A program made the translations under genes and the position numbers. Positions 12,996-41,949 of a stretch of DNA of 64,000 bases are shown here, one piece after another; the stretch's first letter is position 1; each line of letters opens with the position of its first letter. A model generated the notes under the pieces. That model had not been told where the DNA came from. It searched no databases and worked only from the letters and a program-made list of their open reading frames with translations. This stretch comes from Acidobacteriota bacterium (GTDB lineage Bacteria; Acidobacteriota; Terriglobia; Versatilivoradales; Versatilivoraceae), in the NCBI GenBank assembly GCA_022821775.1, contig JAJECY010000247.1:2368-66367 (forward strand), written 5' to 3'.

Positions 12996-13087
12996 CGTGG
13001 GAGCTCCTTCAAATCAAGGAACAAGCACAGCCAGGGGGATTGGGCGTTAGGTTCTTGAGCCTTTTGCAAAATTCGTCGTCGAGCGCT

Positions 13088-13203
13088 GGGGACGTTGTTG
13101 AATTACTGGAATAACTTCGATCCACCGCTGCTGAATGATTTTGATTCAATGACGTCTCCTACGCGCTCTTTACAAGTTATTCCAGTAATTCAACAACGTC
13201 CCC
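13088..13203. repeat. perfect 30-bp AT-rich inverted repeat with a 56-bp spacer (MITE-like / long hairpin element)
   Basis: 13088-13117 GGGGACGTTGTTGAATTACTGGAATAACTT is the exact reverse complement of 13174-13203. Sits in an AT-rich intergenic region between two minus-strand genes. Confidence 0.8.
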
Positions 13204-21879: not shown

Positions 21880-21886
21880 GGTTCCC

Positions 21887-24697
21887 TCAGTTGACAAAGT
21901 TGAACTCGTTGGAGGTCATCAGAATCCGGCAGAGGCTCTGCCAGGCGTCCAGGCGGGAGTCGCCGTCCTTCCCCGAACCGGCCGGATAGTTCCGCAAGTA
22001 GGCGAGGGACTCCTCCACCTCCCGGGGCGTGGGCTGCCGGGTCAGGGTGATGAGATAGGCTCTGCGGACACGCCCGGAGTCCTCCTCATCGGCCGCCGTC
22101 AAATGCTTGGCCAGGGAGCGCGAGCGATCGGCCACGTTCTCGCTGTTCATCATGTAGAGCGCCTGGGTGGCGACGTTGCTCTCGGTCCTCCTTGCCGAGC
22201 TCGAGGAGCTGTTGGCGAAGTCGAACAGCTTCATCACGCCGGGAATCTTGTTGCGGATGACCGGAACGTAGAGGCTGCGCCGGCGGGTTTCGTTGGGATG
22301 AAAGGCCTGTTCCGGACCCTTCTGGGCATAGTCCATCTTCCGGGAGGCCAGCGTGCCGCCCAGGGTCAGGTCCAGGGAACCGTCCAGCGCCAGGAAGGAA
22401 TCCCGCATTTCTTCCACCGAGAGCCGGCGGCGGCGCGCTCGGGACCATAGCCGATTGTCCAGGTCCGACTCCCTGGTCCCGGGGGAGGCCTGGCTGCTCT
22501 GCTGCCAGGTGCTGGACAGCAGCAGCAACCGGTGCATGGCCTTGAGGGACCATCCGCTCTCGACCAATCGGCGCGCCAGGTAATCCATCAACCGCGGATG
22601 GGTGGGTCTCTCGCCGGTGGTGCCGTAGTTGTTGGGAGTGCGCACCAGGCCCTCGCCGAAGTGCCACTGCCAGATGCGGTTGACCATCACCCGGCTGGTC
22701 AGGGGATGGTCTGCTCGGGTCAGCCATTCGGCCAGCTCCCTGCGCCCGCTGCCCTGAGTGATGGGCGCCTGCCGGCTTCCGGCCAGCACCACCGGGAACT
22801 GCTTGGCCACCGGCTCACCCGGAGTCTGGTAGCTGCCGCGGACGAACACCTTCTGATCGACGGGTTCCCCCTCGGCCACGGCGGACGCCAGGGGCGGCTC
22901 GGGAGGCGAGGACTCCTCCAGACGCTCGACCTCTTTTCTCAGTTCGGCGATGCGGTCCCGGGTCTCCTTGGGCAGCAGCTCTTCCCTTTCCTCTTCCTGA
23001 ATCCCGAAGGGGCCGCTGTCCGCCTTGGTCCCCTCGGCCTTGGGAGGAGGACTGATCACCGAGTTGAAAAAGCGACCCTCCACGGTGATGAACTCGTCAA
23101 AGAAGTGCGGTTTCTTGCGGGGAGCCTTGCCCTCCCGGACCGCCTGTTCCACCTTCTGATTCCATTGCCGCAGGCGCTGGTGCCACTCTCCGGACAACCT
23201 GTCGAACAGATCCTGGTATTCCCCAGCCACCCTGGCGAGCTCGGAGGACTCGGCCCGGTGCCACTTCTCCAGGTAGGGACGAAAGGCGTTGCCCGGTTGG
23301 AGGTATTCGATCCAGCGCTGCAGCAGCTTCGGGTCCAGATCCCCCGCGTCCGCCACCTGCTTCAGGGACTCGCCTTGCAGGTAAACACGCCGGGCCGCCA
23401 GCATGTATTCGGCCAGCAGGGGATAGAGCTTTTCTTCGAGATTCCCGGCGACTCCTGTCAGCACCAGCGACTCGATCAGCGACTCCCGCCCCTTGATCTT
23501 GTCCTGATGGCTCTGGTAGCGCTGATGGACCTCCTTGGGAACCAGCGGCTCGAAGTAGAACTTGGACACGAAGGGCGGCTTCTTGTCGGGCGGTATGAGG
23601 ACGCCGAAGCTGCGGGTGCTGGCGAAGATGGAAGCCAGGGAGTAGTAGTCCTTGGTCGAAATCGGGTCGAACTTGTGGTCGTGGCAGCGAGCGCAGGCGA
23701 TGGTCAGTCCCAGAAAGGCCTTGGAGAGGGTGTCGATCTGCTCGTCCACCAGGTCGTAGACCATCTTGGTCTTGTCCTGCTGGGCGATGGCGCGGGGGCC
23801 GATCGCCAGAAACCCGGTCCCCAGCAGGGCCCGAACGTTGGGATGCCCCGGCCGGCCGGAGGGATAGAGGTCGCCGGCGATCTGGTCCTTCACGAAGCGA
23901 TCGTAGGGAAGGTCCCGATTGAAGCTGTCGACCACATAGTCCCGGTAGCGCCAGGCATAGGGCATGGTGATGTCTTCGTCCAGGCCGCTGGAATCGGCAT
24001 AGCGGGCGACGTCCAGCCAGTGGCGGCCCCAGCGTTCCCCGTAGCGGGGCGAGGCCAGCAGGCGGTCCACCAGGCGGGCAAAGGCCCCGGGAGCCTTGTC
24101 GCCGAGAAACTGCTCGATTTCCTCCTCCGTGGGCGGCAGGCCGTGCAGGTCGAACTTGGCCCGGCGGAGCAGCGTCAGCTTGCCGGCGCGGGGAGCCGGA
24201 TCCAGGCCCTTTTCCTCCAGTTTGCGCAGCACGAAGGCATCCACCGGCGTCCGAACCCAGCCCGGATCGCGCACTTCGGGCGCCTCGGGGTCGCCCAGGG
24301 CCTGAAACGACCACCAGGTGGAAATACCGTTGGAACCGTGAGGGTTTTCTTCCCAGTGAGCGCCCGCCTGGATCCATTCTCTCAGGACCTCCACTTCCTC
24401 CGCCGAGAGAGCGCCGCCCACCGGCATCTTCAACTCTCCAGTCTGGAGAACGGCCCGGTAGAGCAGGCTCTCTTCCGGATGCCCGGGAACAATTGCGGGA
24501 CCGCTGTCGCCGCCCTTCAGCAGAGTCTCCCGCTGGCGGAGATCCAGGCCCGAGATGCGCGTCTCCCCGTGGCAGGTCAGGCAATGCTGCTGCAGGACAG
24601 ACCGCGCTTTTTCAGGCAGCGGGGCCTCGGCCGACAGTCCCTGGACCGGGGCGCCGGACAAAATGAAGACAAGGATGGGAAGGGCTCTCGGATTCAA
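21887..24697 (-). CDS. PSCyt1 / DUF1549 / DUF1553 domain protein
   Basis: Signal peptide, CLTCHG haem motif, and RYGERWGRHWLDVARYADS (DUF1549). Collinear with the other two PSCyt proteins in the window. Immediately upstream of its DUF1501 partner. Confidence 0.9.
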   Translation of the reverse strand: MNPRALPILVFILSGAPVQGLSAEAPLPEKARSVLQQHCLTCHGETRISGLDLRQRETLLKGGDSGPAIVPGHPEESLLYRAVLQTGELKMPVGGALSAEEVEVLREWIQAGAHWEENPHGSNGISTWWSFQALGDPEAPEVRDPGWVRTPVDAFVLRKLEEKGLDPAPRAGKLTLLRRAKFDLHGLPPTEEEIEQFLGDKAPGAFARLVDRLLASPRYGERWGRHWLDVARYADSSGLDEDITMPYAWRYRDYVVDSFNRDLPYDRFVKDQIAGDLYPSGRPGHPNVRALLGTGFLAIGPRAIAQQDKTKMVYDLVDEQIDTLSKAFLGLTIACARCHDHKFDPISTKDYYSLASIFASTRSFGVLIPPDKKPPFVSKFYFEPLVPKEVHQRYQSHQDKIKGRESLIESLVLTGVAGNLEEKLYPLLAEYMLAARRVYLQGESLKQVADAGDLDPKLLQRWIEYLQPGNAFRPYLEKWHRAESSELARVAGEYQDLFDRLSGEWHQRLRQWNQKVEQAVREGKAPRKKPHFFDEFITVEGRFFNSVISPPPKAEGTKADSGPFGIQEEEREELLPKETRDRIAELRKEVERLEESSPPEPPLASAVAEGEPVDQKVFVRGSYQTPGEPVAKQFPVVLAGSRQAPITQGSGRRELAEWLTRADHPLTSRVMVNRIWQWHFGEGLVRTPNNYGTTGERPTHPRLMDYLARRLVESGWSLKAMHRLLLLSSTWQQSSQASPGTRESDLDNRLWSRARRRRLSVEEMRDSFLALDGSLDLTLGGTLASRKMDYAQKGPEQAFHPNETRRRSLYVPVIRNKIPGVMKLFDFANSSSSSARRTESNVATQALYMMNSENVADRSRSLAKHLTAADEEDSGRVRRAYLITLTRQPTPREVEESLAYLRNYPAGSGKDGDSRLDAWQSLCRILMTSNEFNFVN

Positions 24698-25240: not shown

Positions 25241-26344
25241 TTGATCGATTGGACTCAAATCGGCGAGTTCGCGACTCGCTATGCGGGTGCAGGCGCCAAA
25301 ATCGCCGGCCTGTTTCTGATGGCCTGGATCGCCTCTCGCATGATTCATCGCTACATCCCCAGGGTGCGCATGCGGCTGGTCAAAGTCATGCAGGCCCGCC
25401 GGCACGAGCCCGATCTCGAACTGGACAAACGGGCGGCCACGCTGGGGGGCATTTTCCGCAAGACGGTAGTGGTGTCGATCTGGGTGGTGGTTCTCATGAT
25501 GGCGCTGGAGGAAGCCGGCTTCAACGTGGGGCCGTTGCTGGCTGGCGCCGGGGTGGCGGGGCTGGCCGTCGGCTTCGGGGCTCAAAACCTGGTGCGGGAC
25601 GTGATTTCGGGACTGTTCATGCTGCTCGAGAACCAGGTCCGGGTCAACGACGTGGCCATCATCAACGGCACCGGGGGCCTGGTGGAGCAGATCAACCTGA
25701 GGACCACCGTGCTGCGAAGCCTGGACGGCACCGTTCACATCTTTCCCAACGGCACCATCAACACCTTGTCCAACATGACGCAAGAATACTCCTACTACGT
25801 CTTTAACATCGGCGTGGCCTACAAGGAGGATACCGACCATGTCTCGGCGGTGGTCAAGGAGCTGGCCGACGAAATGATGCAGGAGGAAACCTATCGATCG
25901 TTCATTCTGGCCCCGCTGGAAGTGATGGGGGTGGATGAGTTTGCCGACTCGGCCGTCATGATCAAGGCCCGCATCAGGACCGCGCCCATCAAGCAGTGGA
26001 TGGTGGGCCGGGAGATGAATCGCCGCATCAAGAAGAGGTTCGACGAGCTGGGCATCGAGATTCCCTTCCCCCACCGCTCACTCTACTTCGGCGAGGCCAG
26101 CAAGGCCTTCGCCACCCGCTCGGCCGGCGCCGATCCCGGCGAGATCAAGGCCATGATCCGCGAAGTGCTGCAGGAAAAGGGCTTGCAGTCCGGCGAGGTA
26201 GAGCCTCCAGCTCCGACAAGGGTGACTCCTGCCGCCCCGAAGCCGAAAGCTCGCCCGCAGCCGGCCAAGCCCGCCGCCGAACGACGCCCGCGCCGGCCGG
26301 CTCCCCTGGGAGAAAGCACGGCTGACTCCGAGGGTTACGAATGA
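25241..26344 (+). CDS. mechanosensitive ion channel (MscS) family protein
   Basis: TM helices plus a conserved MscS beta domain (NLVRDVISGLFMLLENQVRVNDVAI...VHIFPNGTI), with a low-complexity Pro/Ala/Lys C-terminal tail. Confidence 0.85.
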   Translation: MIDWTQIGEFATRYAGAGAKIAGLFLMAWIASRMIHRYIPRVRMRLVKVMQARRHEPDLELDKRAATLGGIFRKTVVVSIWVVVLMMALEEAGFNVGPLLAGAGVAGLAVGFGAQNLVRDVISGLFMLLENQVRVNDVAIINGTGGLVEQINLRTTVLRSLDGTVHIFPNGTINTLSNMTQEYSYYVFNIGVAYKEDTDHVSAVVKELADEMMQEETYRSFILAPLEVMGVDEFADSAVMIKARIRTAPIKQWMVGREMNRRIKKRFDELGIEIPFPHRSLYFGEASKAFATRSAGADPGEIKAMIREVLQEKGLQSGEVEPPAPTRVTPAAPKPKARPQPAKPAAERRPRRPAPLGESTADSEGYE

Positions 26345-27528
26345 TGGACGGCCAGCCCACAAACCGGGTAGTAACATTGGCCGACCGACCGAACTCATGC
26401 CTGTCCGCTTCAGGACTGCGGAGCCGTATTACCCACTCTTTGCGCAAACAAGGATTCCGGTTCCGATCGGGCGTTCTTGTCCCCCCAGATATCAAGGATA
26501 AGAGCAAGCTCAGGGTGCTTCATCGGGAAGCCGTCAAGCACAACGTGAGTCGCAGCCGACGTGGGCTCGAACGGTGCGAAGACCGGCTGCTTTCGTATAT
26601 CGCGTCTGGAGAAGACGTCATTCCCGACAGAATACGCCCCCGACTCGTCTTGGTACAGCCAGGCTCCGAGGACGAACTGCTGTTCCGGTACGCACGCCTG
26701 CACTGGAGCATCCCGGTGTCCGCCGGCTACGGTAGACGCTTGAGATTCGTAGTCTATGACGAATCGAATGGCAAATTGATCGGCATCTTCGGATTGGGAG
26801 ACCCCATCTTCGGCCTTGGCCCCCGCGACCGATGGATAGGATGGAGTCACAAAGCCAAGAAGAATCGGCTACAGTGCGTCATGGACCTCTTTGTGCTGGG
26901 AGCCATACCGCCCTATTCCCATCTTCTTTGCGGTAAGCTCGTCGCTCTGTTGGCGACTAGCCGAACCGTCCGGGAGGCGTTTCGACGCAAATATGGCGGC
27001 CGGCCTTCATATATCGGCCGCAAGCCATTGGACGGTCGCCTTGCCCTACTGACCACAACCTCTGCACTTGGTCGATCATCCTTGTACAACCGACTCCGAT
27101 ACAAGGATGATCTTGTCTTTCAAAGTGCGGGCTTCACACGCGGTTCGGGGGATTTTCACTTCAGCAATGGTTTTTTTGGCGACCTACGTCAGTTTGCGCT
27201 CAAACATTGCAATGCAACGGCTAAGCATACGCTGTGGGGTAAGGGTTTCCGAAATCGACGGGAGCTTGTGAGAAAGACGTTGCCACTGCTAGGTCTCCCG
27301 AAGGAGTTTCTATATCACGGTGTAAAGCGCGAAATATTCTTGGCACCGCTGGCCTCCAACACCGCAGCCTTTCTTTGCGGTGACGACCAACGACTCCAAT
27401 ACCGTGACCTTACCGAGGAAGACGTTTTCAGATGGTTCCGGGACCGATGGCTCCTGCCGCGAGCGGAACGTGACAAGAGCTACTTGGGCTTCGATTCTAA
27501 GGATTACCGGCTCTGGAGGTCGGAGTGA
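26341..27528 (+). CDS. uncharacterised 395-aa protein, first gene of the low-GC NurA/HerA island
   Basis: No motif I can assign. The start ATG overlaps the MscS stop (ATGA at 26341-26344). The stop overlaps the GTG start of the next gene (GTGA at 27525-27528). GC is lower than the flanks. Confidence 0.6.
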   Translation: MMDGQPTNRVVTLADRPNSCLSASGLRSRITHSLRKQGFRFRSGVLVPPDIKDKSKLRVLHREAVKHNVSRSRRGLERCEDRLLSYIASGEDVIPDRIRPRLVLVQPGSEDELLFRYARLHWSIPVSAGYGRRLRFVVYDESNGKLIGIFGLGDPIFGLGPRDRWIGWSHKAKKNRLQCVMDLFVLGAIPPYSHLLCGKLVALLATSRTVREAFRRKYGGRPSYIGRKPLDGRLALLTTTSALGRSSLYNRLRYKDDLVFQSAGFTRGSGDFHFSNGFFGDLRQFALKHCNATAKHTLWGKGFRNRRELVRKTLPLLGLPKEFLYHGVKREIFLAPLASNTAAFLCGDDQRLQYRDLTEEDVFRWFRDRWLLPRAERDKSYLGFDSKDYRLWRSE

Positions 27529-28214
27529 CTCAGAGGCCTTTGACTCACGATCAAACTCCATTCGCCGATCTCCCTGCAGCACTGGTTGACGAGGTCCTGG
27601 GTCAGACCTCCGCCGTCGCACAGGATCTTCTGACCTCTTTCAAAGAGGTCAGGAAGGATCGTGAAACACTTCGTGCCGAGCTTGCGAACTCCGGCTTGGT
27701 AGTAGCCGAATCCTCGCTGGGTTACCCGCCTCTGCCAACGACGTGCGGTGCGGACGGTTCGTATGCGATTGAGCGACTTCTGACGACGGATCTCGCTGCC
27801 GCAGCAGCGGTTGCAGTCGAGGGACTCACTCCCCCTTCTGAAAAGCGACACTGGGAGCTTCCCCGTCATCGGAGCTTCGTTGCCGCCGAGCCCCACGTCG
27901 AAGACACAGCCACCGTCCTTCGCGCGGTAATGCTGGGAGAAGAGTTGCACTTGGTGACGGCTGCCCCGCATGACCTATTGATGCTGGACGGTACGTTCAC
28001 CCTGCCAATCATTTATTTCAATCAGGCGCTCAACAAAGCCCCTGAAACTACCCAGCTACGCTGCGCCAAGAAGTTCCTCGATAACTGTTCGACCTACCTC
28101 GAAGCCTACCGGACCACCTTACAATCGGAACGTTCGGATAAGCACTTCGTGGCGCTTCCGAAGTATTCGACCCGGCGGGAAATCGGCAGTGAATTGGGTT
28201 GGCCCGAGAACTAA
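27525..28214 (+). CDS. nurA: NurA-like 5'-3' nuclease, N-terminal part (ends at an in-frame TAA)
   Basis: NurA motifs are present: GADGS (the DGS aspartate motif), then LGEELHL...LMLDGTF (Glu + second Asp-Gly motif). Ends at TAA 28212-28214. The reading frame continues in-frame into the next ORF. Confidence 0.6.
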   Translation: MTQRPLTHDQTPFADLPAALVDEVLGQTSAVAQDLLTSFKEVRKDRETLRAELANSGLVVAESSLGYPPLPTTCGADGSYAIERLLTTDLAAAAAVAVEGLTPPSEKRHWELPRHRSFVAAEPHVEDTATVLRAVMLGEELHLVTAAPHDLLMLDGTFTLPIIYFNQALNKAPETTQLRCAKKFLDNCSTYLEAYRTTLQSERSDKHFVALPKYSTRREIGSELGWPEN

Positions 28215-28226
28215 GACGACCGTGGG

Positions 28227-28703
28227 ATGCTCACCATGCTTCTGAACCCCGGCGAATTGACAAAACCACGACTACTGGAACACCCACGGGACAGCGAGGG
28301 GAATACCACTTGGCACCTGAATACGCAGCGACTGCCCGACAAGTCGAAGCGCCAGGCTGCCGAGCTGGCGTCTGAGATTGTCTCGGCACTCGGGGACCTT
28401 CGAGTCTTCTACTACAAGCCCCAGGACTGGCTACCTGCACTTAGGATCGAAGTTTCCGCTAGCGTTGCCTCAAATGCTCACCGCTTGGCGACGGTGGTAC
28501 ATGGCATCAAGCACCAGACGGCTACCCCATCGATGCTGGAGCCCTATCCGATCTACCTTGCCGATCGCACCGTAAAGGCACTCGCACGAGCGATTCCTGC
28601 TTTCAGGCAGGTGACGACTCAACGAATTTCGGAGCAGTACGAAGGGGACATCGGCGAGGTGTTCTTCGCAATGCACGGTTATCGCAGCGAGATCGGGAGA
28701 TGA
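28227..28703 (+). CDS. nurA: NurA-like nuclease, C-terminal part (same frame as 27525..28214)
   Basis: Contains the NurA C-terminal-type motif EPYPIYLADRTVKALARA. Same frame (frame 0) as the upstream fragment, separated by one TAA plus 4 codons. The stop overlaps the HerA start (ATGA at 28700-28703). Confidence 0.55.
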   Translation: MLTMLLNPGELTKPRLLEHPRDSEGNTTWHLNTQRLPDKSKRQAAELASEIVSALGDLRVFYYKPQDWLPALRIEVSASVASNAHRLATVVHGIKHQTATPSMLEPYPIYLADRTVKALARAIPAFRQVTTQRISEQYEGDIGEVFFAMHGYRSEIGR

Positions 28704-30487
28704 CAATGACTGACGATTCAGCAACGAATCTAGACAGGCTCATCGATCAGACTGAGCGGTTGGGTGTCGTCGGCTCACCTTCGTCTACTGCCCAGCTTGC
28801 ACTCGACATTCTCGGTTCCGCCGTCACCCGCAAGCTGGTCGGGGAACTCGCGCTCTTCCGCTTCTTGCAGGACACGAGTCCACACTATGCGCTCGGTCAG
28901 ATTACAGAAATTCAACTCCGCAATATCTGGCACGAAGACCCCACCATGCGCAGCCTTATCCGACAGCGCGGCCGGGTCGACGCCGTGAGTGAGCGTCAAG
29001 ATACCCACCTCGGCCAGATGATTATCAGCGCGGTCTTCCAAGAAGGAGGTTCAGCGGGCTACGAACCGAGCATCCTTGGAACCGTGCCGTCAACTGGAAC
29101 CCGAATCCATCTCGTGACGGATCCGGTGCTCGATGAACTGCTCCGTCCGTATCGGGAGCAGATCTTTTATCTTGGACACGTGTACGGCTCCAAGCCGAAG
29201 CTGCCGCTCTGGTTTAAACACTTCGACAAGGGACCGGACGGCGCCGGCGAAGCCTATCACCTCGGTATCTTCGGCAAGACTGGCTCGGGCAAGTCGGTTC
29301 TGGCCAAGATGATCCTTTTGGCCTATGCCCGATATACCAAGATGGCTCTCCTAGTGATTGATCCACAGGGAGAGTTTGCAAAAGATATGAAATCGAACGC
29401 ACCAAGCGGCGAGTTTCGACTTCCCTTAAAGGATCTCATCCGGTCTCAGGGCAAGAAAGCACACGTTCTAACTGTTCGAAAACTCGTTCTTGATCGATGG
29501 GACTTGTTCCGACAGATCCTCGCGGAGTCGAAGTTCTTTCGAGAACTTCAGGTAATGACTCAAGACAAAGTCGAAACTGCATGTGATCAGTTCACTGAAG
29601 CAATGCGAAAAACATCGGGAATCAAGCTTGCCACGCTGCATGAATCAGATGTTTTCAAGAAGGCATGGAAACTTCTTACACAGGATAAGCTTCGTAACAA
29701 GATTTATGCGCGGGAGGGAGCTGCCGCGGAACGTTTCAGAGATGCTGTAAACGAAGCTAATCCGGATGAAATTTATCAAGGCATCTGGTTGCCTGTAGCG
29801 CGGCTGTTTCAAGAGGACCGCGAAGCTGGACGCCGCAAAGTGGAGGATGCCCTCAGGTGGTTGCTGAAATTCAAAGAACATACCAATCGGCCCGTTCTTG
29901 TCGTCGATGTTTCCAAGGAGCAAGCACAAGGGCTACTTTGGAATGACACGATTCAGTCGCTGGTCATCAAACGTCTTCTGGAAGGTGTCACCCACATTGC
30001 TGAAGATATGTACCGGGAAGGAGAGAGTCTCAACGCCCTGGTCGTCATCGACGAAGCCCACCGCTTGGCCCCGGGGCCTCGTGATCTATCGCGGGACGAC
30101 GATGCGGCACGCGGCGTGCGCTCAGTGTTGATCGACGCGGCCCGGACGACGCGAAAGTATGGACTGGGCTGGCTCTTCATCAGCCAGACGCTCTCGAGCC
30201 TGCACCCGGAGATCCTCCAGCAGCTCCGTATCTTCTTCTTCGGCTTCGGACTTGGACTCGGACAAGAGTTCCAGTCGCTTCGGCAGCTTGTGGGCTCCTC
30301 TGGTACGGCACTCGACTTGTATCAATTGTTTCGCGATCCACACTCAGCTTTCGATCCCAGGAGCCGACAATACTCCTTCATGACCATTGGGCCGGTGAGT
30401 CCGTTATCATTTTCCGGAAGCCCGCTCTTTCTGAATGCTTTCAACACGGTAGACGCCTTCTTGAATGCGAACGAACTTGGCAGGTGA
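28700..30487 (+). CDS. herA: HerA-like / DUF87-type P-loop ATPase (FtsK-HerA superfamily translocase)
   Basis: Walker A GIFGKTGSGKS and Walker B ALVVIDEAHRLAP. Size about 595 aa. Immediately downstream of and translationally coupled to the NurA fragments. Lowest GC in the window. Confidence 0.8.
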   Translation: MTMTDDSATNLDRLIDQTERLGVVGSPSSTAQLALDILGSAVTRKLVGELALFRFLQDTSPHYALGQITEIQLRNIWHEDPTMRSLIRQRGRVDAVSERQDTHLGQMIISAVFQEGGSAGYEPSILGTVPSTGTRIHLVTDPVLDELLRPYREQIFYLGHVYGSKPKLPLWFKHFDKGPDGAGEAYHLGIFGKTGSGKSVLAKMILLAYARYTKMALLVIDPQGEFAKDMKSNAPSGEFRLPLKDLIRSQGKKAHVLTVRKLVLDRWDLFRQILAESKFFRELQVMTQDKVETACDQFTEAMRKTSGIKLATLHESDVFKKAWKLLTQDKLRNKIYAREGAAAERFRDAVNEANPDEIYQGIWLPVARLFQEDREAGRRKVEDALRWLLKFKEHTNRPVLVVDVSKEQAQGLLWNDTIQSLVIKRLLEGVTHIAEDMYREGESLNALVVIDEAHRLAPGPRDLSRDDDAARGVRSVLIDAARTTRKYGLGWLFISQTLSSLHPEILQQLRIFFFGFGLGLGQEFQSLRQLVGSSGTALDLYQLFRDPHSAFDPRSRQYSFMTIGPVSPLSFSGSPLFLNAFNTVDAFLNANELGR

Positions 30488-30615
30488 CAAAATGGGTGCA
30501 GTCGTTTGTTCCCAGGGACAAAGAAACCGGGGGGACGAGTATAGGACGTTGTTGAATAGCCGGAAAAACATCCTCGACTTCCGGTTTTGGAGGCACTTGG
30601 GTTTAGAGGCGACCA

Positions 30616-32352
30616 ATGACCTATAGCGAAGCAGAAATCAGGGTTCAACTCAGCCTCGGCGAGGACAGCCGTTGGGAATTCAAGCAAGTCGAATTCGCCG
30701 GCAACTACCCAAGGAATCCGAGGCGGGACGATTTGGCGGATGAGATCGCAGCCTTCGCCAATGCGGATGGCGGTATGCTGCTCTGCGGCGTCACAGACGC
30801 AGGCGAGGTGCAGGGCATGTCTCGTGAGCAGATTGTCGAATTGGATTCTGTTCTGGTCGAGGTGAGTTCTGACGCCATCAAACCAGCCGTTCGCATCCGC
30901 ACCCATCACAGGCACCTCGATGGCAAGCGGTTGCTACTGGTTGAAGTGCCGGCCGGCGAATCGCTGTACGAAAGCCCAGGGGGAAGCTATGTTCGGGTGG
31001 GTGGCACAAAGCGAAAGATGAACAGCGACGAGCAGCTTCGCTTGGCCCAACGAAGAGGACAGGCGCGTTTCCGCTCGTTCGACGAGCAACCCCTCCCAAG
31101 TACCGGATTCAGAACTCTGGACGAATCGCTCTGGAAGCCGCTGTTAACGGCCGAAGGTGCGGTACATCCCGAGTCGGCGCTCGGGAAGCTGGCGCTCCTG
31201 GCGCCCGACCAGGCGGGAATTCCGCGCTCGACGGTAGCCGGCGTGTTGTTGTGCACCCGAAATCCCGAGCAGCACCTCCCCAACGCGTGTATCACGGCGA
31301 CCCGATACCGGGGAAAGGATCGAGCTTCCGGCCAGATCGATGCACAGGAGATCACCGGCCCGCTAGACCGCCAGATCGCCTCCGCAGTGGCCTTCGCCAT
31401 AAGGAACATGCACGTTGCTGCACGCAAGGAGCCGGCCCGCGTGGACCTGCCCCAGTACAGCGACAAGGCACTGTTCGAGGCCATCGTCAATGCCGTGGCG
31501 CATCGCGACTATTCGATGCATGCCAGCAAGATTCGCCTCTCCATGTTCGAAGACCGCCTGGAAATTCAGTCGCCTGGCTCGCTGCCAAACAACTTGACCG
31601 TCGACAGCATGGCAACGCGGCAAGCAACTCGCAACCAGGCCTTGACCTCGGTGCTGGGACGAATGCACGTCGGGGGCGTCCAAGGCTCGGAGGACAGGCA
31701 GTATTTCATGGAGCGGCGCGGAGACGGAGTTCCCATTATCCTGCGCGAAACCAAGCAACTCAGCGGCAAACTGCCGGAATATCGCCTGATCGATGCTTCG
31801 GAAGTCTGCCTGATCATCCCTGCGGCAGTGCAGGAGCGGAGCCCTGCCCGGACTGTCATCACCGTGCGGTCCGGCGGCCAACCCTTGCCTGGCGCCGACC
31901 TGTTGGCTCTTTTTTCGAACAATACCTGGAAGCGCGCGACCACGGACGAGTCCGGGGAGGCGGCCGTCGACCTGCACACGACGCATCTCCCCATGAGGGT
32001 GTTCGCTGCCGCTCCCGGCTACGCTGCACACCTGGAACGTGATTGGGTCCCCAGCAGTCGAGCGCTCACGATAGAAGTCAAGGAACTGCAGGACGGTGGC
32101 AGTGTCATCTTTCCCGAGGCGACGGGATGCCTTCCAGGCCTCAAGGGCAGGCTCAATCCCATACGCGACACCCATGACCGAACCTATCTCTACGCGTCCA
32201 ACGTTGCCATCAACGAGGGCGAGCAGCAACCGGTCTACTTCATCCCCGGTGAAGACCTGCGGTTAACCGATGCCGACGGAACCGCGCTGCTCGTGCGCAT
32301 TGTCGATATCGCAGGCCGCTCGACTCTTTTGGAATATCGTCCATACTCCTGA
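30616..32352 (+). CDS. AlbA_2 (Schlafen-like DNA-binding) + HATPase_c_4 domain protein with extra C-terminal domain
   Basis: N-terminus: RWEFKQVEF...ADEIAAFANADGGMLLCGVTDAGEVQGM (AlbA_2-type). Middle: ALFEAIVNAVAHRDYSMHASKIRLSMFEDRLEIQSPGSLP (HATPase_c_4-type). About 200 aa of unassigned, more GC-rich C-terminal sequence. Confidence 0.75.
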   Translation: MTYSEAEIRVQLSLGEDSRWEFKQVEFAGNYPRNPRRDDLADEIAAFANADGGMLLCGVTDAGEVQGMSREQIVELDSVLVEVSSDAIKPAVRIRTHHRHLDGKRLLLVEVPAGESLYESPGGSYVRVGGTKRKMNSDEQLRLAQRRGQARFRSFDEQPLPSTGFRTLDESLWKPLLTAEGAVHPESALGKLALLAPDQAGIPRSTVAGVLLCTRNPEQHLPNACITATRYRGKDRASGQIDAQEITGPLDRQIASAVAFAIRNMHVAARKEPARVDLPQYSDKALFEAIVNAVAHRDYSMHASKIRLSMFEDRLEIQSPGSLPNNLTVDSMATRQATRNQALTSVLGRMHVGGVQGSEDRQYFMERRGDGVPIILRETKQLSGKLPEYRLIDASEVCLIIPAAVQERSPARTVITVRSGGQPLPGADLLALFSNNTWKRATTDESGEAAVDLHTTHLPMRVFAAAPGYAAHLERDWVPSSRALTIEVKELQDGGSVIFPEATGCLPGLKGRLNPIRDTHDRTYLYASNVAINEGEQQPVYFIPGEDLRLTDADGTALLVRIVDIAGRSTLLEYRPYS

Positions 32353-33476
32353 TGTCACGATTGGAAAACATCCTGAAGCAGAAGGTGAGGGAGGGCGAGC
32401 TCTGGGAGCGGCTGGATGAGAAACGCATCCGCTGCACCGCCTGCGGGCACTGTTGTCCCATTCCCGAGGGCCGCCCGGGCGTCTGCCGGGTTCGCTTCAA
32501 CCGGGGCGGCAAGTTGATGGTTCCCTGGGGCTACACCGGAGGGGTGCAGTGCGACCCCATCGAAAAGAAGCCCTTCTTTCATGCCTACCCCGGAGCGCTG
32601 GCCTACAGCTTCGGCATGCTGGGCTGCGACCTGCACTGCGCCTACTGTCAGAACTGGGTGACCTCCCAGGCCTTGCGAGACCCGGCGGCAGTGGCGCCCG
32701 CTCGCAGGACCACCCCCCAGGCCTTGGCCCGGGCGGCGGTGAGGCAGCGGGCGCGGGTGATCGTGAGCACCTACAACGAGCCGCTGATCACCAGCGAGTG
32801 GGCGGTGGCGGTGTTCCGGGAGGCCCGCAAGGAGGGCCTGGTCACCGGGTTCGTCTCCAACGGCAACGGCACTCCGGAGGTGCTGGAATACCTCAACCCC
32901 TGGGTGGACCTCTACAAGGTGGATCTGAAGAGTTTCCGCGATCGCCAGTACCGCAGATTGGGGGGACGGCTGCAGCCGATCCTGGAGACCATTCGCAGCC
33001 TGTTCCGACAAGGGTTCTGGCTCGAGATCGTGACGCTGCTGATTCCGGGATTCAACGATTCAGAAGATGAAGTCCGGCGGCTGGCGGCCTTCCTGGCGGG
33101 CGTGTCTCCCGACATTCCCTGGCACGTGACCGCCTTTCACCAGGACTACAAGATGACCGATCCCGACAATACCAGCGCCGAGATGCTGACGGCGGCGGCC
33201 GAGATCGGCCGGCAGGAGGGATTGCGCTACGTCTATGCCGGCAACCGGCCGGGCCGGGTGGGGGACCTGGAGAACACCCGCTGCCCGGATTGCCAAGCCC
33301 TGCTGATCGAGCGCTTCGGCTACCTGATTATGGGGTACCACCTGACTCCCCAGGGGGACTGTCCAAGCTGCGGTCTGGCCATTCCCGGGCGCTGGGCCCA
33401 ATCCTTCCAGGGCCAGGTGGCCGCCCATCCCTTCCTGCCCCGACAGGGGATCAACCCGCCAACGGTTTCTTCCTGA
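32352..33476 (+). CDS. AmmeMemoRadiSam-system-type radical SAM enzyme (AmrS-like)
   Basis: N-terminal Cys cluster CTACGHCCPIPEGRPGVCRVR, then a radical-SAM CDLHCAYCQNW (CxxxCxxC) motif. Collinear with AmrS-type proteins. Confidence 0.82.
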   Translation: MSRLENILKQKVREGELWERLDEKRIRCTACGHCCPIPEGRPGVCRVRFNRGGKLMVPWGYTGGVQCDPIEKKPFFHAYPGALAYSFGMLGCDLHCAYCQNWVTSQALRDPAAVAPARRTTPQALARAAVRQRARVIVSTYNEPLITSEWAVAVFREARKEGLVTGFVSNGNGTPEVLEYLNPWVDLYKVDLKSFRDRQYRRLGGRLQPILETIRSLFRQGFWLEIVTLLIPGFNDSEDEVRRLAAFLAGVSPDIPWHVTAFHQDYKMTDPDNTSAEMLTAAAEIGRQEGLRYVYAGNRPGRVGDLENTRCPDCQALLIERFGYLIMGYHLTPQGDCPSCGLAIPGRWAQSFQGQVAAHPFLPRQGINPPTVSS

Positions 33477-33498
33477 AGCCTCCTTCCGACCCGGATTG

Positions 33499-36400
33499 CT
33501 ACTCGAGTTCCAGAGGAACAAATCCCGCCTCGCGGGCCAGTTGGTTGAAGGAGGCCGCCTCGCCTTGGCACAGCTCCCGCAGCCGGGCGATCTCAACGTC
33601 GATCTGGGCGCAGATCTCATCGAAGACCTCGTAGGCCTGCCTGGGCGGGGCGGCGTCGGCAATGCCGACCACGGCCACCAGGCCCCCCAGCTTGGCGTTC
33701 AGGCGGTTGGGGTGGCGCAGCCGGTCGAAGGGGGTCTTGTCCTTGGTCTGGATCAAGGCTTTTTCGATGGAATCCAGTTGATCCCTCAGGGACTTGGCCT
33801 TATCGGAGAGGGGACTCGACCCTTCCGGGTCGCCCTGGCCCGGCTTCTCGGCGCGGCGGGACCACTCGGCCAGTTGCTCTTGCAGGCAGCGGGTGAGGTT
33901 GATGGCCCGGTTGGTCTCCGAAAGCTTGTCCCGAATTCTGGTCCACAACTCGAACTGCGCCTGAAAGTCCTCCGGCGTGGCCTCCACCCGGGGGTCCTTG
34001 AGGATCTCGAAGCTCTCGGTGCATGTCCGACCGCCCGCGCTCAGACGGACCCCGTAGGCCCCGGGAGGGGCCAACGGACCGTTCCCGCTCTTCTCCCGAG
34101 TGCCGAAGAGGGTGGATTGGTCCTTGTCCCGTTCCTCCACTTTCTCGGCGTCGGGGTAGTGCATGTCCCAGACGAAGCGATTCAGCCCGGGACGAGCCGT
34201 GACGTAACGGTCCGCCTTGGGGGAGGCTTCCGCGCCCTCGGCTTCTTCCGGCTCCTGCGGCCTGCTGGTGAAGGTCTTGATCTCCCGGCCGCCGGCGTCC
34301 AGAAAGGTCAACGAGATGGGCTGGCCGGGCGCCTCGGCCAGCAGGTAGTAGACGATGACTCCCGGGGGCGGGTTCTGGCCGGCGTCCAGAAAGCGGCGCA
34401 CGGGTTCGCCCTCGGGGGTCTCATCCTGGTAGTAGCAGGCGTTGCCCCCCAGGCCCAACATGTAGTTCTTGCCCTTGTCGGCAAACATGTTGACGCTCCA
34501 GTTCAGCCGGGTGCGGTAGGTGGGACGGGGAGGGAACAGGCCGGCGGCGGCCCCGGCGGACTCGGGGTCCAACCGGCGCAAGGGGGTCAGGTCGTCCAGG
34601 ATCCAGAAGGAACGCCCGTGGGTGCCGGCCACCAGGTCGGAGTCCTTGATCTTGAGGTCGTAGACCGGCACCACCGGGAGATTGCTCCGCAGCGGCTGCC
34701 AGTGTTCACCGTCGTCGAAGGTGACGAAGACCCCCGTCTCGGTGCCGACGAAGAGCAGGCCCGGACGGACCGGGTCGGCTCTCACCACCCGGGTGATCTG
34801 GTCCTGGGGAAAGTCTCCGGCGATGCCGCGCCAGCTCCGGCCGTAGTCCTCGGTCTTGTAGAGGTAGGGGCGGTAGTCGTCCAGCTTGTAGCGGGTGGCG
34901 GAGACATAGGCCGTGGCCGGGTCGTGGGGGGACACCTCCAGGCAACCCACGTAGGACCACTCCGGCAGTTCGGGCGGAGTGATGTTGTCCCAGTGGGCGC
35001 CGCCGTCTCGGGAGAGATGGACCAGACCGTCGTCGGTGCCCGCCCAGAAAACGCCGGGCCGGTGCTTCGATTCCACGAAGGTGGAGAGGGTGGCGTACCC
35101 TTCGGCGCCGCTGGCGTCCTTGGTGACGGGCCCGCCGGAAGCCTCCAGCTTTCCCGGGTCGTTGCGGGAGAGGTCCGGACTGATGGCTTCCCAACTGCCG
35201 CCGCCGTCCAGGCTGCGGAAGAGGATGTTTCCGCCGGCGTAGAGCACCTTGGGGTCGTGGGGCGAAATGGCGATGGGATAGGTCCAGGCGAAGCGGTATT
35301 TGAGGTCCTTGGGCGCCCAGCCCGTCGACTCCTCGGGCCAGACGTTGACCAGGCGGATCTGCCCGGTCTTGCGATCGTAACGCTGCAACACGCCGTTGCC
35401 CCCCGGCGAGCTCCCTATCGCTCCTAGGTAGACGACGTCCGGGTTGTCGGGCTGGACGGCGATGAATCCGCTCTCTCCCGTGCCGGGGGAGTAGCAGTGA
35501 CTCCAGGCGATGGCGCCGTACTCGGTGGCGCTGGGAACGCAAATGGAGGCGTTGTCCTGCTGGGTGGCGTAGACCCGGTAGGGGTATTGGTTGTCGATAT
35601 CGATTCGGTAGAGCTGCGAGGTGAGCTGGTTGTAGATGGTCGACCAGCTCCGTCCGCCGTTGAAGGAGATGCAGGCGCCGCCGTCGTTCCCCTGAACCAG
35701 GTGGCGGGGGTCGCGCGGGTCGATCCACAGGTCGTGGTTGTCTCCATGGGGGGTGGTCACCTGCTCGAAGCGGCGGCCGCCGTCGGTGGACTTCCACATC
35801 TTGAGGTTGGTGACGTAGACGGTGTCGGCGTGGCAGGGGTCGGCGAAGACGTGGCAGTAGTACCAGGGCCGGTGGATCAGGTCGCGGTTGTCGCTGACCC
35901 GCTGCCACTGCTGTCCGCCGTCATCCGACCGGTAGAGGCCCTCCTGCTCCGACTCCACGATGGCCCAGACCCGGTCCGCCTGGGCCGGCGAGACGGCCAC
36001 GCCGATCTTGCCCTTGATTCCCTTGGGCAACCCCTCGTTGTTGCTGATCTCGGTCCAGGTGTCGCCGCCGTCGGTGGACTTGAAGAGGCCGCTGTCGGGT
36101 CCCCCGCTGGAGAGGGACCAGAAATTACGGTAGGTCTCCCAGATGGAAGCGTAGAGCAGGCGGGGGTTGTTGGGATCCATGGCCAGATCCACCGCACCGG
36201 CCTTGGGGCTGCGGTAGAGCACCTTCTCCCAGTTGCGGCCGCCGTCCCTGGAGCGGTAGACGCCCCGCTCCGGGTTGGAGCCGAAGGCGTGGCCCAGGGC
36301 CGCCACGTAGACCAGGTCGGGATCGTTGGGATGGACGCGGATCTCGCCGATATGGCGGGTCTCCTCCAGTCCCAGGTGGGTCCAGGTCTTGCCGGCGTCG

Positions 36401-39469: not shown

Positions 39470-39625
39470 CCGTGCTGCCGATCGTTACTCCTGGGACGCC
39501 GCGTTTCCCCCCACCGGCTCGACTGCGGGCTTTGCACTCTCGCGACGCCGCGTTGGCCCCCCTCCGGCTCGAAGACGGGCTTCGCCCTCTCGCCGACTCC
39601 CCCTCAAGGGGGGAGTGATTCTTGA
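39470..39625. repeat. GC-rich intergenic repeat element, copy A (two ~36-bp sub-repeats + ACTCCCCCTCAAGGGGGGAGT hairpin)
   Basis: CCACCGGCTCGACTGCGGGCTTTGCACTCTCGCGACGCCGCGTTGGCCCCCCTCCGGCTCGAAGACGGGCTTCGCCCTCTCGCCGACTCCCCCTCAAGGGGGGAGTGATT is near-identical to 50440-50580 and is the reverse complement of 45430-45510. Confidence 0.8.
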
Positions 39626-40852: not shown

Positions 40853-40862
40853 GAGGGTGTGT

Positions 40863-41345
40863 TTACATTTGGATGGGGGAGGTTAACCCTTCGGATGGAA
40901 CCCGAAAAAAGAGTTCGAGTTTGTAGTCTTGGTAGCTGACAGCAAAGTCGCCCTTCATAATGATATCCATCCCAATCAGAACCCGAGTGAATCGCGAGGG
41001 TGGCGGGTTTTTCTGTTGACGAATCTCCACATCTACGATCGCTACAGGAAACAGTAGATTGAACAAATATACATTCGCCAGATGAAAGTGTGCAGACCTT
41101 GGCCCGTGCGACGTGCTGATCGTGGCTGGACGTTGCGGGGTCAGGCCAAGGTCGGCAACCAGTTTTTTGACAAAAGCCGTATTGGTAGCGCCAGTGTCCC
41201 AAACTGCAAAGGTGTCTATCTTGGGTGGTGGAGGCCGCATCCCGTTGTGTTGACGCCACGGGAGGCTGACGCTGACTGGGGTCTTGATCACGGCTCCATC
41301 GCGTAAGTCAAGAAACTGCCTAACCACAACAGGGAATTGGGTCAT
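40863..41345 (-). CDS. retropepsin-like (clan AA, DTGA) aspartic protease, low-GC
   Basis: The track ORF 40863..41396 is trimmed to ATG 41345, which overlaps the stop of the upstream 77-aa ORF (ATGA). Catalytic-type motif FAVWDTGATNTAFV plus flap/C-terminal VLIGMDIIMKGDFAVSY. GC is well below the neighbours. Confidence 0.6.
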   Translation of the reverse strand: MTQFPVVVRQFLDLRDGAVIKTPVSVSLPWRQHNGMRPPPPKIDTFAVWDTGATNTAFVKKLVADLGLTPQRPATISTSHGPRSAHFHLANVYLFNLLFPVAIVDVEIRQQKNPPPSRFTRVLIGMDIIMKGDFAVSYQDYKLELFFRVPSEGLTSPIQM

Positions 41346-41575
41346 TCGACGTTGGAGTAGAACATCACGGGACGTTCCTCGTGGAGGAAATAGCATGGGT
41401 GGATCAAGAAGTTGCCGGGCACAAGATTTTTTTCGTCTACAGCGTTCCAGTAGGCATCGCTATCCGAAGGAAAGGTTCCCAAAATACCGTCTGCGCTGAT
41501 CAAGACGTACTCTCCGTGGTGCTGCTTTGCAAGGTCTTCTTGGTGGCTGCGAAAGGTCTTCATAAGCTCGTCCAT
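41342..41575 (-). CDS. hypothetical 77-aa protein translationally coupled to the aspartic protease
   Basis: MDELMKTFRSHQEDLAKQHHGEYVLISADGILGTFPSDSDAYWNAV... No recognisable domain. Low GC. ATGA overlap with the protease start. Confidence 0.45.
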   Translation of the reverse strand: MDELMKTFRSHQEDLAKQHHGEYVLISADGILGTFPSDSDAYWNAVDEKNLVPGNFLIHPCYFLHEERPVMFYSNVE

Positions 41576-41949
41576 GGATCGCCTCCTGGGAATAGAAGGA
41601 AGGGAAGGGACAGGCCAGCCCTTGATCGAGCGCGGGACACACCTCTCCGAGCAGGGAGAAATGTGCTATTTGCGGGAAGGAGATTACCGGCATAGCCGGC
41701 CAGGGCTCGACCTCAAAAGCGCGGGGTTTTCGCGCTTGAGGGAGGCCGCCTCGGTGCGATCTGGGCGGCGGGCGTTCACACTGTTGAACAACCGTGATGC
41801 TGACAGGGTAACGGCTCCCCTGTCAAGCGCCTTAGCGCCTTTTTGCTTTGGGTCCGTCGATCGGACTCGACTATGATGCCATCGAGGCCGGATGGATCCG
41901 GCGGTCCAGGGCATCCAGAAAAGAGACGGGAACCGACGAGGACAAAAGA

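Follow-up and report, generated by a model that had tools for sequence, protein, structure and literature searches.

The 64-kb stretch of DNA analysed here (the window) carries between 26341 and 33476 a run of tightly packed genes in which, as the earlier note had stated, 30488-30615 is the sole true intergenic gap. At the other junctions neighbouring genes share 1-4 nt, and a nonsense mutation accounts for the 12-nt break at 28215-28226. The features of this region are as follows.

26341..27528, + strand: DruA-like (DUF4338) gene, 395 aa, the first ~20 nt of which are backbone and overlap the MscS stop
26361..30588, + strand: strain-variable segment of 4.2 kb, comprising the cassette and its tail, which replaces ~15 nt of cassette-free intergenic DNA
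27525..28703, + strand: NurA-domain pseudogene, in which TAC>TAA at 28214 leaves ORFs of 229 and 158 aa
28700..30487, + strand: HerA/FtsK-like ATPase gene, 595 aa
30488..30588, + strand: 101-nt tail from the herA stop to the backbone restart, which carries the arm and occurs in the window lineage only (window, L114, L116)
30542..30571, + strand: solo degenerate arm, 23/30 against the consensus GGGGACGTTGTTGAATTACTGGAATAACTT, with an exact core at 30544-30557
30560..30588, + strand: CCGGAA...TTCCGG stem followed by TTTT, weak, the 5' half of the stem being repeat arm
30589..30615, + strand: AlbA_2 leader and ribosome-binding region, 27 nt, GGAGGCACTTGGGTTTAGAGGCGACCA, conserved backbone that is also present in cassette-free alleles
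30616..32352, + strand: AlbA_2 (Schlafen-like)/HATPase_c_4 gene, 578 aa, whose stop overlaps the radical SAM start by 1 nt

Homology to other cassettes ends at 30487/8, and backbone homology to the cassette-free locus L115 restarts at 30589. The NurA gene, interrupted in the window, is intact (392 aa) in L114 and L197. Among the components of Druantia type I only DruA finds a match (E = 2.6e-108), NurA has no PADLOC match, the third gene encodes a generic HerA/mad8-like ATPase, and no DruE-like gene is present. An assignment to Druantia type I was rejected, since that system requires DruA together with DruB, DruC, DruD and the large DruE helicase and DruA alone was found. No published description of a system combining DUF4338/DruA, NurA and HerA was found, nor is one listed in PADLOC 2.0, and the literature searched holds no paper on 'Versatilivorator'. 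The highly conserved, unnamed DruA-NurA-HerA cassette may represent a candidate anti-phage system. Comparison of strains revealed at least three states of the MscS-rSAM defence hot spot, occupied by a phosphoesterase, by AlbA_2 alone, or by the cassette together with AlbA_2.

The 14-mer and its dispersed repeat family

The 14-mer GGACGTTGTTGAAT, which the earlier note had described as common to the gap and to an outer arm of a distant perfect inverted repeat, is indeed present at 30544-30557 (+), 13090-13103 (+) and 13188-13201 (-). The last two sites lie in the repeat 13088-13203, whose perfect 30-bp arms (13088-13117 and 13174-13203) are separated by a spacer of 56 nt. The features of this second region are listed below.

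13058..13087, + strand: flank module AGCCTTTTGCAAAATTCGTCGTCGAGCGCT, found next to one of the arms in many family copies
13088..13203, no strand assigned: 116-bp REPIN-like doublet whose ends are 30-bp arms in perfect inverted repeat; it belongs in full to the commonest subfamily
13144..13159, - strand: third, degenerate arm-like unit GGAGACGTCATTGAAT in the spacer, kept across the 116-bp subfamily

The 64-kb window holds just one 14-mer copy beyond those of the inverted repeat, as a chance coincidence would have it. That explanation can be practically dismissed, in line with the earlier judgement that such a match is improbable, as three window matches (≤2 mismatches) were counted against 0.25 expected, a number reached by 0 of 100 shuffles, and the likeness exceeds the 14 nt first noted, with agreement at 23 of 30 arm positions over 30542-30571. 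The 26-nt pattern GGACGTTGTTGAATNNCNGGAANAAC matches at all three 14-mer sites, with 0 matches expected in the window search, and the identical 26-mer is found in family members elsewhere. Homology, not chance, is the cause of the match.

Contigs totalling 596 Gb were scanned with the pattern GGACGTTGTTGAATNNCNGGAA (19 specified bases), for which ~4 chance matches are expected by arithmetic, and at least 113 loci were recovered. Among the loci listed, 111 of 113 derive from Acidobacteriota MAGs, chiefly Ca. Versatilivorator and Versatilivoraceae, and the listed loci together hold at least 181 matches to GGACGTTGTTGAATNNCNGGAA and at least 214 exact 14-mers. In the arm profile, conservation over positions 1-30 ranges within 58-100%, with 24 positions reaching ≥95%, and is gone past position 30. 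The listed loci (877 kb) contain 265 arms. Of these, 151 count as paired, with a convergent partner within 260 bp, and 102 are solo; a further 12 lie too near a locus end and were left unscored, giving 253 scorable arms. The commonest partner spacing among them is 116 bp (20 cases in the listed loci), the same as in the window, and clusters of arms occur in L019, L046 and L089. Full-length relatives of 13088-13203 number 34 among the listed loci, with 75-91% identity (most 85-91%), and a subfamily of ~187 bp bears the same arms. The short elements fall into size classes of about 71, 116 and 169-187 bp, accompanied by many solo arms. The module AGCCTTTTGCAAAATTCGTCGTCGAGCGCT recurs in L085, L103, L101 and L053 and, reverse-complemented, in L090, L105, L081, L043, L012, L049 and L018. 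Independent Logan assemblies end one base outside the 116-bp element 13088-13203, and copy number in the window's own genome is gauged indirectly, from the 90-93%-identical relatives and the assembly breaks.

The arms are strongly biased toward extragenic DNA: coding sequence as defined by GC3 makes up 57.5% of the bases of the listed loci and contains 19 of 262 arms (7%; p = 6e-67). Extragenic copies of a short, highly conserved and often palindromically arranged motif would also fit the operator of a host transcription factor placed before regulated genes. This alternative is very improbable, as the copies run into the hundreds with conserved bodies of 70-190 bp, lie mostly between or after genes in either orientation, coincide with breaks in assemblies and, at their arms, bound the multi-copy transposase units described below.

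The 116-bp doublet folds as a DNA hairpin of -34.4 kcal/mol (z = -8.85), and a single arm is not complementary to itself. In the 30-bp stem, 62 variant cells break pairs and 2 compensate, which gives no covariation support for a selected structure. Rfam returned 0 matches over the whole window at the gathering threshold; the 13.1-kb element was also considered as an Rfam miRNA hairpin and rejected, the matches being to generic models only, far under thresholds, and an artefact of the long perfect stem. No consistent target duplication was seen in the flanks of family copies, and no clean pair of filled and empty sites for repeat insertion was found among the syntenic loci, which differ by larger segments. 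A phage or plasmid origin was likewise rejected, since the arm pattern has 0 matches in viral_contigs and the HerA-like protein reaches ≤31% identity on PLSDB plasmids.

Transposase units and kinship with known repeat systems

In L034, L040, L083 and L108, inverted arms 1340-1355 bp apart flank an ORF of 321 aa, forming units of ~1.34 kb. Cut-down copies of the transposase were found in L005, L007, L009, L063, L072, L078 and L106, and a single genome, OZ240232.1, holds several intact and shortened copies (L007, L009, L072, L083, L106 and L108). Being multi-copy at 87-93% identity and often cut down, the unit is insertion-sequence-like in behaviour.

The 321-aa protein scores 30.3 bits against Pfam Y1_Tnp (cut-off 23) and 63.5 bits (E = 1.9e-17) against NCBIfam REP_Tyr_transpos, under the RAYT cut-off of 80. 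BLASTP to published TIRYTs gave 40% identity and E = 3e-31 with S. maltophilia 4509 and E = 1e-24 with K. versatilis 2776, and BLASTP to the E. coli RAYT gave E = 0.005. Two segments of the protein, NHAHLLL and RYIHLNP, line up with the motifs HVH and Y-IELNP in the TIRYT alignment of PMC3733652. The ORF encodes an IS200-like Y1/HUH tyrosine transposase that belongs to the TIRYT class, carries a helix-turn-helix (HTH) at its C-terminal end and is far nearer to TIRYTs than to the RAYTs of E. coli or Pseudomonas. No transposase gene of TIRYT type was found within the 64-kb window. An IS5/IS903-type DDE transposon end, suggested by a resemblance of GTTGTTGAAT to IS903 ends, was dropped, as the enzyme encoded between the arms is a Y1 transposase rather than one of DDE type.

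The family shares with MITEs its non-coding elements of 70-190 bp with terminal inverted repeats. MITEs such as the Correia elements of Neisseria have terminal inverted repeats of ~26-30 bp and hundreds of intergenic copies, and occasionally affect neighbouring transcripts. Classical MITEs stem from insertion sequences with a DDE transposase and duplicate their target site, whereas the enzyme linked to the present family is Y1/HUH and the flanks have no consistent duplication. With IS200/IS605 the family shares a multi-copy unit and a Y1 transposase that has both the HUH motif and the catalytic tyrosine. The ends of IS200/IS605 are subterminal hairpins and their TnpA, of ~150 aa, is devoid of a C-terminal HTH extension, in contrast to the long terminal inverted repeats of the family units and their 321-aa transposase with a C-terminal HTH.

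REP/REPIN-RAYT systems feature inverted doublets that form hairpins of ~100 nt, singlets being decay products (Bertels and Rainey 2011, PMC3116915; PMC5581495). The present family resembles them in its short, extragenic, high-copy repeats, its hairpin-forming inverted doublets and the flanking of an IS200-like transposase gene by the repeats. Different from REP units, which are imperfect palindromes with a GTAG or CGTC tag, the arms are non-palindromic and mostly without GTAG; they are not classical REPs, because they are not self-complementary and GTAG crosses the arm boundary in 42 of 262 arms (~16%). The transposase also departs from RAYTs, which are single-copy and vertically inherited, in being multi-copy and in scoring below the RAYT model cut-off.

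The closest likeness is to TIRtrons, in which long TIRs opening with GGGG-type motifs enclose Y1 transposase genes and also make up repeat families (singles, dimers and groups), and which are known in Acidobacteria as well (Di Nocera et al. 2013, PMC3733652). As in those systems (PMC3733652), a Y1/HUH gene is located between long TIRs, the 3' repeat overlaps the gene end, the TIR begins with GGGG, and copies of this TIR are scattered singly, in dimers and in groups. The arm start GGGGACGT fits the published TIR motif GGGGWSAS at only 6 of 8 positions. The TIR sequence, the Ca. Versatilivorator host and several body subfamilies set the family apart from the TIRtrons of that paper (PMC3733652), where they are absent. 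It is new as a family but of a kind already known, the REP/REPIN-like "TIRtron" repeats, and adds a well-populated example of a TIR-bounded Y1 transposase (TIRtron) whose unit is still present in multiple copies. In the TIRtron and REP literature searched, experimental transposition is reported for no TIRYT.

Membership of the family, its copy number and extragenic bias, the link to the transposase, the position of the gap copy relative to the indel and its absence from orthologous and related cassettes are all observed directly, and they argue, at a probability of roughly 0.8, for the 14-mer as the invariant core of a 30-nt arm, GGGGACGTTGTTGAATTACTGGAATAACTT, belonging to a short mobile-repeat superfamily with a Y1 transposase, the gap copy being a relic. 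The arm is common to short, non-coding, extragenic repeats of Ca. Versatilivorator and related Acidobacteriota. These elements would be non-autonomous and form hairpins when single-stranded, to be recognised, cut and copied in trans by the Y1 transposase; such mobilisation has been proposed for REP/REPIN-RAYT and TIRtron systems and is suggested for the short elements by analogy. Such repeats usually build up 3' of genes, in dispensable intergenic DNA; 13088-13203 is an intact doublet and 30542-30571 a decayed solo arm in the 3' tail of the cassette. The gap arm would have arisen or been kept in the window lineage only, after or alongside the arrival of the cassette. For the annotation of Ca. 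Versatilivorator the family is useful in that it breaks assemblies and marks dispensable intergenic DNA.

The solo arm in the gap

The best outside matches to the gap arm are other arms of the family (26/26 nt in L054, 25/26 nt in L046 and L038), and the gap copy resembles the family over the arm alone, for 26-29 nt. With 7 of 30 positions changed, it is a solo, decayed arm. It is missing from the orthologous cassette of the sister species L197, where the gap measures 26 nt, and from cassette-free alleles, and the 14-mer core occurs in 0 of 80 related cassettes elsewhere.

Whether copies of the 14-mer mark the borders of islands or mobile elements had been raised in the earlier note, which named abundance in unrelated contexts in advance as the finding that would count against it. 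The border idea is unsupported because the motif is abundant genome-wide at just such unrelated extragenic sites. What survives is position alone, the arm lying in cassette-side DNA, 18 nt in from the right-hand end of the 4.2-kb strain-variable segment.

An arm that marks or makes the island border, as an attachment site, transposon end or recombination hot spot for insertion or exchange of DruA-NurA-HerA, is improbable. It would suit the placement near the right edge and the separate, independently inserted arm of opposite orientation that the sister species L073 has in the same MscS-rSAM hot spot; L197, in turn, shares the left junction yet is devoid of the arm, as are the related cassettes of the core. 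The arms of all five syntenic loci (L073, L025, L065, L090 and L081) reside in segments of 0.85-2.4 kb without window counterpart, a support that is partly circular because the loci were chosen for arms missing from the window, and the family as a whole sits overwhelmingly at unrelated extragenic sites. Two sites carry the 8-mer AAACCGGG, one at 26361, where cassette-specific sequence starts, the other at 30524, just 5' of the arm. This 8-mer is the sole match of the tail (p ~0.06), and local alignment of the island tail with the empty sites (L115 and L073) and with the left junction was not significant (p = 0.21, 0.96 and 0.06). A 16-mer window search at ≤3 mismatches found no partner arm near the left border (26.3 kb; 26361), and neither a direct repeat nor an att-like duplication is present. 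The gap copy is most likely a relic that no longer moves and plays no specific part in setting the limits of the island. As a stray, decayed copy of a widespread mobile repeat, the 14-mer is an ordinary genomic feature and not an island-specific marker, and its presence in both the gap and the distant inverted repeat is the expected REP/MITE-like signature rather than an island boundary.

A wider role is rather doubtful, in which the single-strand-active Y1 transposase and the arms create substrates for breakage and recombination that drive the turnover (gain, loss, swap) of defence cassettes at hot spots such as MscS-rSAM. If it were true, the gap arm and the independent arm of L073 would be footprints of a cassette-exchange process and, as an equally doubtful by-product, DruA(DUF4338)-NurA-HerA would be a self-contained, widely transferred three-gene module.

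The hairpin reported for the gap is present, with CCGGAA at 30560-30565, TTCCGG at 30579-30584 and TTTT at 30585-30588. Arm and hairpin might have been co-opted as an RNA element that, by acting as terminator, insulator or stabiliser of 3' ends, uncouples AlbA_2 from transcription of the cassette; this is unlikely though conceivable. REPs often lie 3' of coding regions and are presumed to work as RNA hairpins (PMC3733652). In the gap, the CCGGAA half of the stem falls within the arm and TTTT follows the stem, yet the U-run is consumed by the stem in the favoured larger fold. The stem has 8 bp, a 13-nt loop and -9.1 kcal/mol, with 9% of shuffles equally stable, and the fold of the whole gap gives z = -1.06. 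The hairpin departs from the intrinsic-terminator pattern of a GC-rich stem, a 3-8-nt loop and a free U-run, and an intrinsic terminator scan did not call it, regional matches numbering 7 against 7.1 in shuffles, none of them within the gap. No sigma-70-like promoter was found in 26000-33500, and no promoter-like site downstream of the hairpin, by a consensus that may not fit acidobacterial promoters; Rfam at E ≤ 1 has no match in the gap. The spacing between herA and AlbA_2 is just 26 nt in L197, so that the 128-nt gap is a derived state, a change that would be in keeping with co-option. Such co-option is compatible with a mobile-repeat origin of the arm, and the gap copy may have a regulatory side-effect; as a relic of the mobile-repeat family, the reading preferred here, the solo copy would be functionless.

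The leader 30589-30615 was compared in L115, L204, L205, L206 and L073. The separate history proposed for the AlbA_2 gene is borne out by its cassette-free occurrence in L115, L204, L205 and L206 and its absence in L073, and by a GC3 of 0.715, between the 0.60-0.64 of the cassette and the 0.82-0.85 of the backbone. The proposed rise in GC toward its 3' end holds loosely but is not steady, successive 290-bp bins having values of 0.572, 0.610, 0.652, 0.597, 0.652 and 0.578. The gene was acquired separately from the cassette and has links to defence loci; within a type I restriction-modification operon there is a homologue of 88% identity.

The repeat arm in the gap and its family

The gene layout around the 128-nt gap agrees with the earlier note, the genes and the gap being arranged as follows.

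Features around the gap, in window coordinates
25241-26344, MscS
26341-27528, DruA (DUF4338), E = 4e-109
27525-28703, NurA, Pfam 27.9 bits against a cut-off of 21
28700-30487, HerA/FtsK-like ATPase
30488-30615, gap of 128 nt between HerA and AlbA_2
30589-30615, conserved AlbA_2 leader (last 27 nt of the gap), also present in the cassette-free L115, L204, L205 and L206 and in L073
30616-32352, AlbA_2/HATPase_c_4
32352-33476, radical SAM

The explanation of the shared 14-mer is an ordinary one, in that the gap copy is a decayed, solo arm belonging to a REP/MITE-like repeat found across the lineage. The 14-mer GGACGTTGTTGAAT, the invariant core of the 30-nt arm, lies in the window at 30544-30557 (+), 13090-13103 (+) and 13188-13201 (-), and these coordinates confirm that it is common to the gap and to both arms of the 13.1-kb element, a perfect 30-bp inverted repeat (13088-13117 and 13174-13203) whose 56-nt spacer contains a fourth, weaker arm copy at 13144-13159 (-). 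Chance was rightly discounted in the earlier note, as three matches to GGACGTTGTTGAAT with at most 2 mismatches occur in the window compared with 0.25 in shuffles, and 0 of 100 shuffles reached three; the degenerate 26-nt pattern GGACGTTGTTGAATNNCNGGAANAAC matched the same three sites with an expectation of 0. The 14-nt identity stands, while the actual likeness is longer than the note had claimed, with 23 of 30 arm positions identical in the gap copy (30542-30571).

Scanning one genome per species (596 Gb) with GGACGTTGTTGAATNNCNGGAA, whose 19 specified bases give an arithmetic expectation of ~4 chance matches, returned at least 113 loci. Among the matches listed, 111 of 113 loci are Acidobacteriota MAGs, chiefly Ca. 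Versatilivorator and Versatilivoraceae (class Terriglobia), and these 113 loci contain 181 pattern matches and 214 exact 14-mers. Across 262 arms among the matches listed, positions 1-30 are conserved at 58-100% (24 positions at ≥95%), conservation falls away beyond position 30, and the ten bases 5' of the arm are purine-rich. Only 19 of the 262 arms lie in GC3-defined coding DNA against 57.5% of locus bases (p = 6e-67), the gene mask being crude and missing low-GC3 foreign genes.

Several different conserved bodies adjoin the arm, so that the distances between convergent arms fall into size classes of ~71, 116 and 169-187 bp, and the 13.1-kb element (13088-13203) is a complete member of the most frequent one. 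Among the loci listed, it has 34 full-length relatives with 75-91% (mostly 85-91%) identity, the exact 116-bp geometry recurs in 20 arm pairs, and many copies share the flank module found at window 13058-13087. The 265 arms in these loci comprise 151 with a convergent partner within 260 bp, 102 solo copies and 12 unscorable near a locus end. As single-stranded DNA, the 116-bp element is predicted to form a hairpin with a 30-bp stem (-34.4 kcal/mol, z = -8.85). Two independent short-read Logan assemblies of the window's own population (L202 and L203, position 1 corresponding to window 13086) stop one base outside it, as assemblies do at a high-copy repeat. Nucleotide identity to the window is 86-92% in the syntenic loci L073, L025, L065, L090 and L081 and 92-96% in L197, which places the window in the lineage of these Acidobacteriota MAGs. 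An element of the 116-bp type with 78% identity was also found at the extreme end of a contig of a 'Silicimonas sp.' MAG (L024 589-704, JAJDVJ010000044.1); this contig, binned as alphaproteobacterial, is probably mis-binned acidobacterial DNA.

The linked transposase

In four loci (L034, L040, L083 and L108), convergent arms 1340-1355 bp apart enclose an ORF of 321 aa, and shortened copies of this unit occur in seven further loci, several of them within one genome; the 64-kb window itself contains no transposase of this type. The 321-aa protein passes Pfam Y1_Tnp (IS200-like), carries a C-terminal helix-turn-helix, and matches the NCBIfam RAYT model with E = 1.9e-17 at a score under the model cut-off. 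Thousands of homologues of ~320 aa are named 'RayT' or 'transposase' in their sources. Against the sequences of the alignment in PMC3733652, the protein shows 40% identity with S. maltophilia TIRYT 4509 (E = 3e-31) and a match to Koribacter 2776 (E = 1e-24), with E = 0.005 only for E. coli RAYT, and its HUH motif and catalytic tyrosine align with those of the TIRYTs.

In the 'TIRtrons' described by Di Nocera et al. (PMC3733652), RAYT-like genes (TIRYTs) are enclosed by long TIRs with a GGGG motif at their start, and these TIRs form families of repeats that occur singly, as dimers and in groups, in hosts including Acidobacteria. The arrangement here is the same, with long inverted arms around a RAYT-like gene and dispersed TIR repeats. 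Because both this arrangement and the TIRYT homology match, the family is best classed, on sequence comparison, as new but of the already known TIRtron kind, linked to a TIRYT-class transposase. Its way of working would resemble that of REP/REPIN-RAYT systems, but it departs from REP/RAYT in two defining features, as its arms lack the form of palindromic GTAG units and its transposase occurs in multiple copies.

Position of the gap copy and transcription signals

An identical AlbA_2 protein is encoded by three contigs, namely L116, which is the same as the window, L114 from an island-bearing strain with 98.8% identity to the window, and L115 from a strain ~97-98% identical, in which AlbA_2 follows MscS after 58 bp. 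In the alignment, window ~26361-30588 (4.2 kb) stands in place of ~15 nt of this 58-bp spacer, which puts the gap copy within the island, 18 nt short of the right junction. The earlier note had raised the idea that the 14-mer marks island borders. No arm was found at the left island junction in the window search, and the island tail aligned without significant likeness to the empty site or the left junction. The sister species L197 shares the left junction and all four genes, with a herA-AlbA_2 spacing of 26 nt and no arm, and the 14-mer occurs in 0 of 80 metagenomic cassette relatives, whose nucleotide homology stops at the herA stop codon. The border role is thus not upheld, and the 14-mer turned out to be abundant in unrelated contexts, at no fewer than 113 loci, an outcome that the earlier note had itself named as refuting its reading. 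Given the armless L197, the 80 relatives and the end of homology at the herA stop, the 101-nt tail with its arm is a lineage-specific addition behind herA. The 8-mer AAACCGGG occurs both at 26361-26368, the first cassette-specific bases, and at 30524-30531, just 5' of the arm (p ~0.06), and the pair may be chance or the remnant of a target duplication.

The CCGGAA/TTCCGG stem and TTTT run noticed earlier are present at 30560-30588. The small hairpin (8 bp, 13-nt loop, -9.1 kcal/mol) is equalled by 9% of shuffles, folding of the whole gap gives z = -1.06, the scan called neither a terminator nor a sigma-70-like promoter in the gap, and no Rfam family matches it. The 26-nt spacing in L197 suggests co-transcription of herA and AlbA_2 there. 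As the wide gap of the window is the derived state, any insulating effect would have been acquired, a possible but unsupported reading.

The cassette, AlbA_2 and the variable surroundings

The cassette is a unit of DruA, a NurA-domain protein and a HerA/FtsK-like ATPase, and 63 of 80 related loci (L117-L196) have all three in the same order; in 16 the contig ends too early to score, and one (L156) has no DruA in the 1.1 kb upstream. HerA shows 69-85% protein identity, and the neighbours vary by locus, including UvrD/PD-(D/E)XK and a DNA methylase in L136. Druantia type I was rejected, as PADLOC recognises DruA and a generic HerA only. The DruA(DUF4338)-NurA-HerA combination matched no named PADLOC system and no paper in the literature searched, one paper reading DUF4338 as a GNAT-like fold, and it is a candidate undescribed defence or DNA-processing module. 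A nonsense mutation (TAC>TAA at 28214, codon 28212-28214) makes NurA a pseudogene in the window and L116, and L114 and L197 have the gene intact; the cassette of the window strain is therefore probably inactive. Between the window and L114, AlbA_2 has 4 differences and the island of 4275 bp another 4, giving 8 in ~6.2 kb (26285-32500), compared with roughly 1.5-2.5% in the flanks. This suggests that the block was recently exchanged between strains or swept through them.

Full-length conservation of the AlbA_2 family is high, and members from, for example, Truepera and Nitrospira show 74-95% identity. In type I restriction-modification operons (L207 4385-9557, L208 2577-7746, L199-L201 4337-10628), homologues with identities of 88% and 76% are flanked by hsdM on one side and hsdS on the other; in L207 and L208 the operon adjoins TraG/TrwB, ParA, PIN-MazE and IS21 genes. 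This context argues for an arrival separate from that of the cassette, as the earlier note had proposed, and cassette-free alleles and the intermediate GC3 (0.715, compared with 0.60-0.64 in the cassette and 0.82-0.85 in the backbone) agree with it; the rise of GC toward the 3' end also put forward there was not steady. The AlbA_2 stop codon overlaps the start of the AmmeMemoRadiSam radical SAM gene, which belongs to the backbone.

At the same MscS-rSAM site, the sister species L073 lacks AlbA_2 and carries a different arm, inverted relative to the gap copy and on the leader's opposite side, adjoining a metallophosphoesterase gene. That gene and the repeat element replace AlbA_2 at L073 5243-6355 (-), and its longest ORF extends into the repeat. 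The site is evidently a hot spot gathering dispensable DNA and repeats. The by-products of most interest are the repeat family, this defence hot spot with its three states, and the DruA-NurA-HerA cassette, which is unnamed.

A further repeat family, unrelated to that of the arm, occupies window 39504-39620, 45430-45519, 50456-50572 and 50654-50686, with direct and inverted copies 94-96% identical and a palindromic core CGACTCCCCCTCAAGGGGGGAGTGAT, and is probably another REP-like element. Three paralogous DUF1501 and PSCyt/PSD1 gene pairs, better known from Planctomycetes, share 70-80% nucleotide identity (7738-11910, 20455-24697 and 50.9-55.2 kb). Window 41000-42000 and 57000-60000 have a GC of 0.53-0.60 compared with 0.64 overall; the synteny with L025 stops at 57604 and that with L065 is broken at 40861-41835, so these low-GC stretches are likely further variable islands.
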